Positions 15,909-23,529 of a DNA stretch of 64,000 nucleotides are shown here, one piece after another (within the stretch, counting starts at the first letter, position 1; every line of letters starts with the position of its first letter). The position numbers were made by a program, and so were the translations under genes. Below the pieces are notes generated by a model. That model saw only the letters and a list, made by a program, of their open reading frames with translations. It was not told the origin of the DNA and ran no database searches. Source of the stretch: Escherichia coli 042. GTDB lineage: Bacteria; Pseudomonadota; Gammaproteobacteria; Enterobacterales; Enterobacteriaceae. Location of the stretch: NCBI RefSeq assembly GCF_000027125.1, contig NC_017626.1. One strand, given 5' to 3'.

Positions 15909-16020
15909 GTTGGTTCAGTTGGTTCAGTTGGTTCAATTTGTAAAGAGTATTGTTTTATAAGGATTTTATTCTTTTTATTGAACCAACACTGAACCAACAA
16001 CACGGTATTTTGAACCAACA
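15909..16020. repeat. Iteron cluster (candidate replication origin / primase binding site)
   Basis: Three tandem GTTGGTTCA followed by three inverted TGAACCAAC(A) copies, immediately 3' of the primase gene. Confidence 0.6.
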
Positions 16021-16467
16021 CAATGTGACTGAATTGATGCGCACAACACCTGGCTGGCATCAGAGAGTATTTTACGAGACTTTCGTAAAATCCTGTGTAC
16101 AAGGGCGTGACGTTTTTGAAAGTGAGCACTACGAAATTTTCGTAGTTCAGAAAACAGCCACTGAGAAGTTGTTATGCCTGTTCAGCAAACCATCCGCATA
16201 GCTGATCGCGAATCAAATTACCAATGGAGCCAGAAGCAAGGGCAGAACTGAAAAGCGCCTGCCGTGAAGGGTAATGCGACACCATAAATATAGTTTTTAG
16301 AGTCCATAAAAAACCTGTCAAAACCTGACACACAGAACGATGCCACCAGCTACTGAGCGGTGGCATTTTTTTGTGCTATCTGTTTCATATTTTGCAATTA
16401 CGATGATGAATATTGCGATTTGTGAAACTATAATAACTGTTGTTTTATACAGTTCTAAGGGGGCGTT

Positions 16468-16629
16468 ATGGCTATTTCAGTAAAGCCGGTATTGATAAGT
16501 GAGAAGCAAATGGAAGCGATAAAGAAAATTCAGGAAGAGCAGCGTAAAAAATCAGGAATTGGAGTAGCGCCAACTCTGCATGAAATTGCTCGAGGGTTAA
16601 TAGATAAGGCGCTGGCAGGCTGTATGTGA
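16468..16629 (+). CDS. Hypothetical small protein (53 aa, below ORF-track cutoff)
   Basis: ATG at 16468 with SD aaggggg 6 nt upstream; MAISVKPVLISEKQMEAIKKIQEEQRKKSGIGVAPTLHEIARGLIDKALAGCM; stop at 16627-16629. Confidence 0.4.
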   Translation: MAISVKPVLISEKQMEAIKKIQEEQRKKSGIGVAPTLHEIARGLIDKALAGCM

Positions 16630-16645
16630 AAATGGATGGCATCGC

Positions 16646-17107
16646 ATGGAACTAAAATTTATTGATAACCCTGTGCGATTACAGGCCTTTCTTAACGATC
16701 CTGGCAATACCGAAAATATTGTTGAGCCGGGGCACACGTACTACATCAAGCCTGATGCGGTATATCTCGGCATCTACGAAGGATTGGTGCTGGCTGGCGT
16801 TCATGAAGTGCGTAACTTCTGGCATAGCATTGTTGAATGCCATGCGGTGTACGACCCCGGATTCCGTGGTGAATATGCACTGCAAGGGCATCGATTATTC
16901 TGCAAATGGCTTCTCGAAAACTCACCATTCCTTAACAGCATCACTATGGTTCCTGACACCACGAAATACGGACGGGCAATTATCCGTTTGCTTGGCGCTA
17001 CCCGTGTTGGTCACCTTGATGATGCTTATATCAGATGTGGTAAACCCGTCGGCGTAACGCTTTATCAGTTAACTCGGCAACAATATAAGGAATTCAGCGA
17101 ATGTTAA
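16646..17107 (+). CDS. Hypothetical protein, first gene of a four-gene coupled operon
   Basis: 153-aa ORF; its stop overlaps the next start. Confidence 0.55.
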   Translation: MELKFIDNPVRLQAFLNDPGNTENIVEPGHTYYIKPDAVYLGIYEGLVLAGVHEVRNFWHSIVECHAVYDPGFRGEYALQGHRLFCKWLLENSPFLNSITMVPDTTKYGRAIIRLLGATRVGHLDDAYIRCGKPVGVTLYQLTRQQYKEFSEC

Positions 17108-17778
17108 TTACCCATATAGCTCATAAACATCTCAATCGTGCCGTATACGAAAAAGGCGGTGATGGTGGTGCCTCTAAAGCTCAGGCGAAGGCCCAGCAGC
17201 AGGCAATTGATTTGCAGCGCGAGCAGTGGAATACGGTGATGAATAATCTCAAGCCGTATGCAGAAGTCGGATTGCCTGCTTTACAACAACTACAAGGACT
17301 GATGACTCTGGAAGGGCAGAATAAAGCCGCGAATGATTTCTTTGGTTCTGGTTTATATAAAACACAGGCAGATCAGGCCCGTTATCAGAACCTTGTCTCA
17401 GCAGAAGCTACCGGGGGGCTTGGCTCAACAGCTACCAGTAACCAGTTATCTTCCATTGCGCCCATGCTTTATAACAATTGGCTTAGTGGGCAAATGCAAA
17501 ATTATGGAAACCTGCTAAATGTCGGGATGAATGCGGCATCAGGGCAGGCAACGGCAGGGCAAAACTACGCCAATAATACCGGACAACTCTTGCAGGGGCT
17601 TGGCGCTATTCGTGCAGGTCAGGCGCAGCAGCCATCCAGTCTTGCGCGTGGTATTGGTGGGGCGGCATCAGGCGCTTTAGCGGGTGCGCAACTTGGTTCC
17701 GTTGTTCCGGGTATAGGTAATGTCGCCGGGGCTATTGGTGGTGGGCTTATTGGTCTTGTTGGGGGGCTTGGATTCTAA
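17101..17778 (+). CDS. Hypothetical protein with glycine-zipper C-terminus
   Basis: 225 aa; C-terminus GIGGAASGALAGAQLGSVVPGIGNVAGAIGGGLIGLVGGLGF. Confidence 0.55.
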   Translation: MLITHIAHKHLNRAVYEKGGDGGASKAQAKAQQQAIDLQREQWNTVMNNLKPYAEVGLPALQQLQGLMTLEGQNKAANDFFGSGLYKTQADQARYQNLVSAEATGGLGSTATSNQLSSIAPMLYNNWLSGQMQNYGNLLNVGMNAASGQATAGQNYANNTGQLLQGLGAIRAGQAQQPSSLARGIGGAASGALAGAQLGSVVPGIGNVAGAIGGGLIGLVGGLGF

Positions 17779-21742: not shown

Positions 21743-22705
21743 AGCTTGGGTCGGGATTTCAAATCCGATCCCCGTTGATGGGGCCGTTACAGTACGCGCA
21801 TATCCGCTTTATGTGAAACAGGAAGATTTTTCTGATATCACTGCCACAGCAAAACACCAATTTCGTGACCAGTACGCGCGCGAGGTGTATCAGTTGCAAA
21901 ATTTTTTGCAGCTGTGTCCGACCAGTACGCACGCGATGGCGGGGAGCACCATAAAACTGTTCTCTACATAAGACAGAGTGGTGGTGATGTGTTGATTATC
22001 GGCGTATATGCGCACAGGACGCGCTATGACGATGTTTTATGCGGGTACACCAATCACATGTATCTGGTGTGATAAATCGCGTTACATGACCTCTCATGTT
22101 GTGCTGGTGGTTATCACGACGTTCTGAATCTGGCCTTTGCCTGGTATTTTGCGACAAGTACGCGCACGTAGCATCGAAATAATCGGATGGCGTATGCTGC
22201 TGGTAATATGAAGACCGATAGCATTAACCGAAAGGATAAAGACTTCTCGATAACGGCAAGGGGGCTGAATTGCGAGGCGAGATTAAGCAACTGTCTTGAA
22301 CGTAAAAATCATGGAGCAACATGATGGTACGATTCATTCCATTCTTCGTTCTTTCTGAGCATTGCGTTCAGGCTTAGTCAAAATTAGTGTTGCGAGCGGA
22401 CCTATTAGTAATTGTTGGTGCGATGCGCCTGTTATGGATTGTTATGGTTGTGGCAGGCCTGATTAATATCCAGTATGACCACCAGCTATGAGAGGCCACC
22501 TCAGTGGTTCGCAGTTGCAGGTTTGCACTCAGGTTCGCAGGGTTTTGGCTACTTTCACGTGCGAACCTGCAGAATTGCAAAGGACAACTAAGTCCTCTGG
22601 CCAACTCCCGGTTTATGAGCGACACAGTCCGCCTGGCGCATCGTTTTCGTCGAGTGCGCCCATCAGCTTGTCCATGGACTATCCACCACTCGATATTAAA
22701 GTTAA

Positions 22706-22891
22706 TCATTGGTTGCCAGCCCGCGAATCAAGTTTGTTCTGGATCCAAGCTTCAACCTCCTCAAGCGACCATCTAGCTGATCTACCAATTTTAACTGGCT
22801 GTGGAAACGTGCCCGTCTTAACCCATGAGTAGATTGCCGTTTTCTTGAAGCCCGTTCTGAGCATGACTTCGCTTAATTTGATAAGGCGCAT
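22706..22891 (-). CDS. AlpA-family prophage regulator (second copy, opposite orientation)
   Basis: 61 aa; MRLIKLSEVMLRTGFKKTAIYSWVKTGTFPQPVKIGRSARWSLEEVEAWI matches the AlpA HTH pattern. Confidence 0.65.
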   Translation of the reverse strand: MRLIKLSEVMLRTGFKKTAIYSWVKTGTFPQPVKIGRSARWSLEEVEAWIQNKLDSRAGNQ

Positions 22892-23143
22892 AGAGGCTCC
22901 TCTGCTTTAGATTAAGCATAGTGACAATCTGGCTTTGGGCGGTATCCAAAAGCGAGGTATCCATGTTGGTATCCACCAAAACGCTGTTTACCAAAAAAGT
23001 TACCACCGGAACAGGACATTTTGAGCTGTAACTTAACACATAGCATATGGAGTTCACGCATAGACTTCACGCACAACGGCTCCGGCCAGTGAAGAATCAC
23101 CCTGGCTGGCAATATAATGCCGATCACCATCAGAGGGGAATCC

Positions 23144-23335
23144 ATGACACCACGAGAAATCGAGCTGCTGACCATTGCCAAGCTGGAGCATGACGGCCAC
23201 CAGCTCAGCCCGGCAGAATTGCGGGAATTAAGGCGCCAGCTGGCAGAGGGCCCTGTAATAGCCAGGCGGTACCGCGAAATGATGACCAGCCCCGCATATC
23301 GCTGGAGCAAACCAGCGCCGCTCCGTGCGCGGTGA
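23144..23335 (+). CDS. Hypothetical small protein
   Basis: ORF 23117..23335; start placed at MTPREIELL with a gagggg SD upstream. Confidence 0.35.
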   Translation: MTPREIELLTIAKLEHDGHQLSPAELRELRRQLAEGPVIARRYREMMTSPAYRWSKPAPLRAR

Positions 23336-23408
23336 GCAGCACCTAACCAGCACTAGACAAGCCCTGTGCTGGTGGATGTCCCTCATAATTAGCGGTTTTT
23401 AAACGGCG

Positions 23409-23529
23409 TGTTGGTTCACGGCCTCTTTTTGTTGGTTCAAAAATGGGGTGTGTTGGTTCACTTTTTGCGAATAATCCTTTTAAAAACAATACTCTTTACA
23501 AATTGAACCAACTGAACCAACTGAACCAA
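23409..23529. repeat. Second iteron cluster, inverted copy of 15909..16020
   Basis: 3x GTTGGTTCA then 3x TGAACCAAC; 23482..23529 is the exact reverse complement of 15909..15956 (48 bp). Confidence 0.6.

Follow-up and report, generated by a model that had tools for sequence, protein, structure and literature searches.

A probable pair of mirror-oriented origin units on an EcCIMP1-type phage-inducible chromosomal island at yicC/dinD of Escherichia coli 042

The published replication origins of phage-inducible chromosomal islands (PICIs) and of Staphylococcus aureus pathogenicity islands (SaPIs) lie directly 3′ of rep, where two opposed sets of iterons flank an AT-rich region. In EcCICFT073, pri-rep together with this origin drives plasmid replication. 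In SaPIs, Rep is a self-loading hexameric helicase whose C-terminal domain recognises the 6–12 iterons through a winged helix, and the SaPI model has two hexamers on a single unit. EcCIMP1, a 19,963-bp PICI of E. coli MP1 that is induced, excised, circularised and transduced by the P22-like phage Kapi1, carries two alpA genes, perC, a primase gene and ‘DNA transfer’ genes; its alpA_1 is not needed for the PICI itself to excise but helps the helper phage to do so (Pick, Stadel & Raivio, ISME J 2025; PMC11773190). That paper makes no mention of an origin, of iterons or of a repeat (PMC11773190), and the open-access literature searched yielded no account of a second or distal origin in a PICI, or of any origin in EcCIMP1. 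Here we analyse a 64,000-nucleotide stretch of the chromosome of E. coli 042 (contig NC_017626.1; the window in the rest of the paper), which carries a relative of EcCIMP1 between yicC and dinD, and report that the two arms of an inverted repeat on this island are probably the outer ends of a pair of cognate origin units that belong to one EcCIMP1-type PICI.

Direct comparison revealed a perfect 48-bp inverted repeat in which positions 15909–15956 are the exact reverse complement of 23483–23530. An earlier note, made from the letters of the window, had described this repeat with its right arm displaced by one base (23482–23529); the repeat itself is real. A repeat finder that tolerates one mismatch lengthens it to 55 nt (98% identity; 15902–15956 / 23483–23537). 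Both arms fall within clusters of a 9-bp iteron, GTTGGTTCA, as the note had also stated. The window contains 12 exact copies of this 9-mer for 0.61 expected, and no more than 3 copies were reached in 100 shuffled sequences. All 12 are confined to two origin-type arrays of six copies each. The combination of repeat and iterons is real and far beyond chance.

In each array, three iterons abut at a period of 9 bp; a 43-bp spacer rich in A+T comes next, and then three further iterons that are spaced apart and point the other way. Unit 1 (15909..16019, + strand) has abutting GTTGGTTCA copies at 15909, 15918 and 15927 (15909–15935), a spacer at 15936–15978 and TGAACCAAC copies at 15979, 15990 and 16011; the left arm of the repeat (15909..15956) is made up of its tight triple and the first 21 nt of its spacer. 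Unit 2 (23410..23530, − strand), inverted relative to unit 1, has spaced GTTGGTTCA copies at 23410, 23431 and 23452, a spacer at 23461–23503 and abutting TGAACCAAC copies at 23504, 23513 and 23522 (23504–23530), and ends with the right arm (23483..23530). The A+T content of the spacer is 84% in unit 1 and 77% in unit 2, compared to 53% for the island. When one cluster is inverted, the two align over approximately 120 bp as copies of a single unit, with one half perfect and the other half diverged but similar in layout.

Unit 1 starts 26 bp past the stop codon of a 919-aa primase-helicase, the position that the earlier note had likened to an origin and that PICI origins do occupy. At the level of sequence, unit 1 corresponds to a PICI origin as defined for SaPIbov1, SaPI1, SaPI5 and EcCICFT073: it lies immediately 3′ of pri-rep; opposed short iteron sets surround an AT-rich region (three plus three exact 9-mers, in unit 2 as well); the number of iterons falls within the range of 6–12; the helicase is homologous; and specificity would reside in the C-terminal part of Rep, here indicated by covariation (see below). 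Unit 2 has the same anatomy in a position not described before in the literature searched. It is located ~7.4 kb from unit 1 and ~7.5 kb downstream of the primase gene, such that unit 1 alone occupies the pri-rep-adjacent position; its neighbours are a minus-strand AlpA-type gene ~520 bp away (22706–22891) and perC, which begins 36 bp downstream. Published PICI origins comprise one iteron/AT-rich block that follows pri-rep; here a second, mirror-oriented cognate unit is found across accessory genes, 7.4 kb away in the window and up to ~13 kb away in relatives.

Both units lie within one island. Positions 5000–29000 of the window are 99.5% identical to the corresponding locus of E. coli strain SCU-316 (L001), and imperfect direct repeats ending in GGTGTACATAAT (12 nt exact, ~25 nt if imperfect) bound 19.9 kb between yicC and dinD. 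The attL-side repeat (6053..6077) marks the left end of the island, between yicC and int, and the attR-side repeat (25958..25982) the right end. The ~20 kb between these attachment (att) repeats contain the genes characteristic of EcCIMP1-like PICIs, namely a tyrosine integrase (6135..7394, +, from the RefSeq annotation of L001), alpA (8448..8651, +, phrog_66), which occupies the position of the PICI master regulator according to the role given in the EcCIMP1 paper, and the primase-helicase (13124..15883, +). Neither the RefSeq annotation nor PHROG searches revealed capsid, terminase or lysis genes in the island.

EcCIMP1, examined in the MP1 genome, has the same two iteron units and an identical 48-bp inverted repeat, 8.5 kb apart. 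It also shares with the window island a size of ~20 kb and the order int, alpA, ant, ash/icd, TOPRIM-DUF927 primase, DUF2824 and ejection genes, opposite-strand alpA_1 and perC. The two islands differ in their integrase, in their att site (tRNA-Thr by proA for EcCIMP1, yicC/dinD for the window island), in the gp16-type gene and in the spacing of the units (8.5 versus 7.4 kb). Like EcCIMP1, the window island may be induced by a helper phage, excised and transferred.

The arrangement is common in E. coli. The primase end together with unit 1 was detected in 362 of 5,426 complete genomes; a second matching place was present in all 30 genomes sampled from these, and unit 2 was present in each of the three complete E. 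coli genomes fetched as a check (3/3). Since the repeat recurs in hundreds of independent complete assemblies, including that of EcCIMP1, it is not an assembly artefact, a concern that the earlier note had raised.

The same note had suggested that the repeats would allow inversion or deletion of the enclosed cargo. Deletion is not an outcome that inverted repeats can yield. In favour of a recombination switch inverting the 7.5-kb segment, 48 bp of perfect identity is long enough for rare RecA-dependent exchange. We searched the 5,426 genomes with the predicted inverted junction (window 15357–15956 joined to the reverse complement of 22883–23482; 1,200 bp). Not one genome contained it at a coverage of at least 80%, whereas 503 matched one half or the other. 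Moreover, the small open reading frame (ORF) at the head of the cargo points the same way as the primase gene in all 9 loci where it was detected (of 17), no invertase or recombinase gene was found beside the repeats among annotated or PHROG-scanned genes, and the exact stretch common to both units of other islands measures only 15–38 bp. The single flipped unit 2 that we observed, in E. coli 99-3165 (L078, 18618–23569), is bracketed by two inverted copies of IS1. Taken together, these results make a switch extremely improbable. The 48-bp identity is best read as the result of sequence constraint or of gene conversion between two sites of the same protein.

In 99-3165, the flipped segment holds perC, an Abi gene and unit 2, so that units 1 and 2 stand there in direct orientation; the primase of this decaying island is truncated. 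Unit 1 also varies in how many of its iterons abut: three in the window, four in SCU-316 (L001 13910–13945) and OkiPb01714 (L077, +26..+53), and seven in an Erwinia metagenome-assembled genome (L055, +32..+86). Unit 2 keeps three in the window, SCU-316 and OkiPb01714. This variation looks like 9-bp slippage, and because of it the repeat arms are not always of equal length.

A scan of one genome per species recovered ~50 full or partial relatives of the primase in Enterobacterales, each of which was considered with 10-kb flanks. The iterons that follow the primase stop codon in these relatives fall into at least five classes, GTTGGTTCA, GTTGTCTCA / TGAGACAAC, (A/G)(C/T)GGGTTA, GTCGGTTCA and TTATCCCA / TTAGCCCA. 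In compact islands, approximately 12 iterons occupy one ~290-bp block between pri-rep and the first downstream gene. They have the mirror layout, with abutting and mutually inverted outer triples, and in every class stand at offsets of ~30/39/48, 100/111/132, 175/196/218 and 261/270/279 from the stop codon. The whole set of ~12 iterons switches class together, so the link to the primase is as close for the second array as for the first.

At least 12 islands have this iteron block split by 0.4–13 kb of cargo. The distance between the two halves is 0.4 kb in Limnobaculum (L042), ~1 kb in Erwinia (L055), 4.8 and 6.2 kb in Serratia (L030 and L035), 5.9 kb in Lonsdalea (L017), 6.8 kb in Cedecea (L025), 7.1 kb in Enterobacter (L059), 7.2 kb in Rosenbergiella (L023), 7.8 kb in Citrobacter (L064), 8.4 kb in Leclercia (L063) and 8.8 kb in Chimaeribacter (L021); in E. 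coli it is 7.4 kb in the window, 8.5 kb in MP1 (EcCIMP1, L075) and ~13 kb in LR-33 (L008/L006). Distal units that were complete and inspected are full units in mirror orientation, and the distal unit carries the island’s own iteron class in three different classes: matched distal units occur in GTTGGTTCA islands of at least nine genera, in the Citrobacter island (TTATCCCA class) and in the Limnobaculum island (GTCGGTT class). Even variant iterons of the tight triple are common to both units of one island, GTCGGTTCA in the Serratia island L030 and GTTGCCTCA in the Enterobacter island.

Pri-Rep, the product of the primase gene, has Pfam matches to a primase zinc ribbon, Toprim_3 and DUF927, and belongs to PHROG 1139. 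Its helicase part matches a SaPI ‘pathogenicity island protein’ (PDB 8tch, E = 1e-11) and the helicase Cch of the staphylococcal cassette chromosome SCCmec. We aligned the primases and searched for residues that are conserved within a class and differ between the GTTGGTTCA class (n = 20) and the TGAGACAAC class (GAGACAAC; n = 6). Only positions 892–897 (nt ~15797–15814 of the window) separate the two classes, which read QRKSPRI and QGRV-RE, respectively, in proteins that are otherwise ~80% identical. Iteron class and primase thus covary, and these residues, a candidate specificity patch, are the expected signature of a C-terminal element that reads the iterons. It is on this covariation that the iterons appear to be cognate to the adjacent Rep. 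Arm-type sites of the integrase were also considered as an explanation for the distal array and rejected: the array lies 2.4 kb from attR, has the anatomy of an origin and covaries with the primase, not with the integrase.

The ‘alpha-like primase’ of the earlier note is an apt name for part of this protein. Residues 8–362, which constitute the N-terminal primase domain, are 33% identical to the alpha protein of satellite phage P4; the helicase is of the DUF927 type and is related to SaPI Rep and Cch. The comparison of the two sites with P4 ori and crr, which the note had also drawn, holds in a loose sense. In the P4 record, crr (4291–4590) lies by the end of alpha (4636), ori lies at 9310–9413, and type-1 iterons are present at both, 4.7 kb apart. 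P4 thus resembles the window island in being a satellite replicon with the same short iteron at two places several kilobases apart, one of them directly after the replicase gene. However, crr consists of two 120-bp direct repeats, ori and crr do not mirror each other as copies of a single unit, and it is the replicase gene that lies between them, in contrast to the cargo found here. Since, in addition, the helicase and C-terminal regions of Pri-Rep are unrelated to alpha, the pair is not a member of the P4 ori/crr family. A requirement in cis is a known property of crr; for unit 2 it is a candidate property.

From its sequence organisation, the locus is best described as one element with a putative split or twin origin. 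We infer that Pri-Rep, in which a TOPRIM primase is joined to a self-loading helicase of the DUF927 type, would bind both units by recognising the 9-bp GTTGGTTCA via its C-terminal domain. Unit 1 would then be a canonical PICI origin, whose opposed iteron sets flank an AT-rich melting region. Unit 2 would be a second, mirror-oriented Pri-Rep array beyond the accessory module, abutting the perC promoter region. The arrays are contiguous in compact relatives, and in the lineage of the window the accessory genes sit between them. Unit 2 may fire as a second origin, or it may enhance initiation in cis as crr does in P4, and its occupancy may also affect transcription of perC. A model with one helicase hexamer per six-iteron unit was dropped as the lead model, as the published SaPI model has two hexamers per unit.

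Binding of Pri-Rep and initiation are predictions for both units, and several points weigh against this interpretation. An AlphaFold2 model of the C-terminal region (130 aa, 19 sequences) is of low confidence (pLDDT 59.8); its order of strand, helix, helix and hairpin is compatible with a winged helix, and a Foldseek search of the PDB with this low-confidence model returned no match with E < 0.4. Eight relatives (L028, L029, L032, L034, L036, L039, L044 and L045) have unit 1 alone within 10 kb downstream of the primase, showing that unit 2 is not universally required and arguing against a strict requirement in cis. Many compact islands have a GC-rich second spacer, as would be expected of an auxiliary or regulatory array more than of another site of melting. 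Finally, an intact GTTGGTTCA unit 2 has been kept beside perC in E. coli islands under another replicase (DUF5906; L004 11981–12101 and L003 14008–14128) or another iteron class (L054, +6185..+6291 from the primase end, where the primase belongs to the TGGGATAA class), and has decayed to two iterons in two further DUF5906 islands (L009 and L010, ~11960–12000). Unit 2 can therefore be kept without its cognate protein. Such an orphan unit might permit replication in trans by a co-resident island.

Some of these points would favour a different role for unit 2, that of a control site at which Pri-Rep, bound to the distal tight triple, regulates the promoter of perC or ssb or handcuffs unit 1 to limit copy number. 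In every island inspected, compact or split, the distal tight triple abuts an outward TTGC..TATATA motif upstream of the next gene, perC in the window and ssb in the compact island L007. In the window this motif, TTGCTTATCTATATA, is followed by a ribosome-binding site (23531..23566, +) and is a candidate perC promoter. The GC-rich spacer of many compact islands, an unlikely melting site, and the existence of islands with unit 1 alone point in the same direction. There is also a precedent in the auxiliary iteron arrays of plasmids P1 (incC/incA) and F (incB/incC), which are distant from the origin, can pair with it and act negatively; these arrays have no AT-rich melting spacer, and their initiators are of the RepA type and not helicases. 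On the other hand, unit 2 has the full anatomy of an origin in all split islands, including a 43-bp AT-rich spacer, homologous to the one in unit 1, that an operator would not need. A strict promoter/terminator scan called no sigma-70 consensus promoter at either unit, including the TTGCTTATCTATATA region, and a fast-amplifying satellite has little obvious need of negative control of its copy number. We regard a purely regulatory role as rather unlikely and favour the pair of cognate origin units, in which the distal unit may be a second origin, an enhancer like crr, or an operator or handcuffing site, and may even act mainly in regulation. The only terminator called in that scan of both units lies after unit 1 (16349–16380).

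The GC-rich spacer, of ~34 bp and with a consensus near AAAYCCAGNNNTGGCGCGGYCTGTAGCNCCG, precedes the distal tight triple at ~+225..+260 from the stop codon. Spacers resembling AAAYCCAGNNNTGGCGCGGYCTGTAGCNCCG are kept across iteron classes while the flanking iterons change (L012, L014, L024, L033, L038 and L041). A second motif, CCTGGCTGGCA(G), is found conserved whatever the iteron class; compact islands have it between their two sets of iterons (~+150..+170), and it flanks the cargo on both sides in the window, where copy 1 (16049..16059, +) follows unit 1 and copy 2 (23101..23111, +; repeat I6) lies just upstream of a 72-aa ORF. It could be a site for a host factor or a recombination scar of cargo insertion.

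The presence of CCTGGCTGGCA on both sides of the cargo and the persistence of the perC-proximal unit when the replication module is swapped, as in the DUF5906 islands and in L054 with its TGGGATAA-class primase, could also be taken as traces of two related elements joined head-to-head, as the earlier note had proposed, or as a fossil of recombination between islands, the pair having no present function. Yet the island has one integrase, one att pair and one primase, the functional PICI EcCIMP1 has both units, and the iterons are intact in both. The mirror layout is uninterrupted in compact islands of at least five iteron classes, and the split layout with a matching iteron class recurs in islands of at least 10 genera. 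Because there is a single att pair, because EcCIMP1 has the same pair of units and because the arrays are contiguous in compact islands that hold both sets, we reject an origin from two elements and consider it, like a fossil without function, very unlikely. The swaps evidently reflect exchange of replication modules with a breakpoint between the two units.

In the DUF5906 sister islands, the iterons proper to these islands (GGTACAGGT and its complement) likewise form two clusters, at 20560–20690 and 21690–21800 in L003 and at 2415–2500 and 3539–3626 in L004. One cluster lies right after the replicase gene; two small ORFs separate it from the other, which is ~1.1 kb away. The split-origin layout may thus be general in these satellites, independently of the replicase family.

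The conservation of a second mirror unit across many genera has several consequences. If the distal unit is active, the replication of these satellites and their copy number after induction would have to be modelled differently, and EcCIMP1 with Kapi1 would be a tractable system for a self-loading helicase with two separated loading sites. The units also delimit a slot for accessory genes and the breakpoints of replication-module exchange, and they help to annotate islands present in ~7–10% of complete E. coli genomes and to predict cross-replication.

The genes that lie between the units code for virion proteins of genome delivery in each genus. In the window, the cargo (16468..21304) is led by a small conserved ORF (16468–16629, +), followed by homologues of the P22-type ejection proteins gp14 (16646–17107, +), gp7 (17101–17778, +), gp20 (17778–19199, +) and gp16 (19199–21304, +), as identified by PHROG (651, 598, 917 and 770) and RefSeq. 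E. coli LR-33 (L006 2891–9874) has an 899-aa SLT transglycosylase and two large proteins in this place. For the other genera, in which the span from +150 of the primase end to the distal unit was considered, the cargo codes for tape measure proteins in Leclercia (L063, 892 aa), Chimaeribacter (L021, 1136 aa; phrog_1107, E = 0) and Lonsdalea (L017, 584 aa), for a ‘lytic tail / internal virion protein with transglycosylase’ in Cedecea (L025) and Rosenbergiella (L023), and for a baseplate hub in Serratia (L030). We found no description in the open-access literature searched of a satellite family with its own helper-matched ejection or tape measure proteins, and satellite-borne proteins matched to the type of helper may be the more novel feature of these islands. 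One could tentatively imagine the twin-origin pair as a cassette slot for such helper-matched genome-delivery proteins, with the origins over-replicating or co-regulating the cassette after induction, for example as two initiation sites, and serving as homologous boundaries at which cassettes and replication modules are exchanged between islands. This extension is doubtful at present; if true, it would reveal a hitherto unrecognised principle by which satellites that bring their own machinery for DNA injection are organised.

Between the cargo and unit 2 lie alpA_1, a second gene of the AlpA or excisionase type (22706..22891, −, phrog_66), and a conserved ORF of 63–72 aa (23117..23335, +; containing REIELLTIAKLEHDGHQLSPAELRELRRQLAEG) that reads toward unit 2. 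RefSeq leaves this ORF without annotation in the relatives inspected, where a 45-aa ORF on the opposite strand is called in its stead; in LR-33 it is called a hypothetical protein. Homologues were detected in L006, L014, L017, L025, L026, L030, L042 and L054, and lie near the distal unit in several genera. The 72-aa ORF, a 53-aa ORF and a membrane-like ORF of 139 aa had no family match in PHROGs or NCBIfam. Beyond unit 2, perC (23567..23854, +) codes for a PerC-family regulator (phrog_994, phrog_10396; RefSeq). The annotation of SCU-316 lists, in order, an integrase, an AlpA-type protein, an antirepressor, an ‘ash’ protein, small ORFs and a ‘TOPRIM and DUF927’ protein, then the cargo with DUF2824 and phage DNA-ejection proteins, an opposite-strand helix-turn-helix gene, PerC and a Doc toxin.

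A scan of the island with Rfam found no RNA family at either unit. Elsewhere in the island it returned isrK (10478–10555, 67 bits), the C4 antisense RNA (10618–10705, 79.5 bits) and the int-alpA RNA motif (7403–7469, 60.6 bits). The first two fall within a 355-aa ORF (10097–11164) that RefSeq labels ‘ash family protein’. Because the isrK and C4 matches lie inside it, this ORF has probably been over-called across a P1/P7/P4-type region of RNA-based immunity that precedes an Icd-like peptide.

Outside the island, the window contains a tRNA-Sec gene (selC, 44606–44700), a classic site of island integration, followed by a stretch of low GC content (30–31% at 46–48 kb) that may be another island, unrelated to the origin units.

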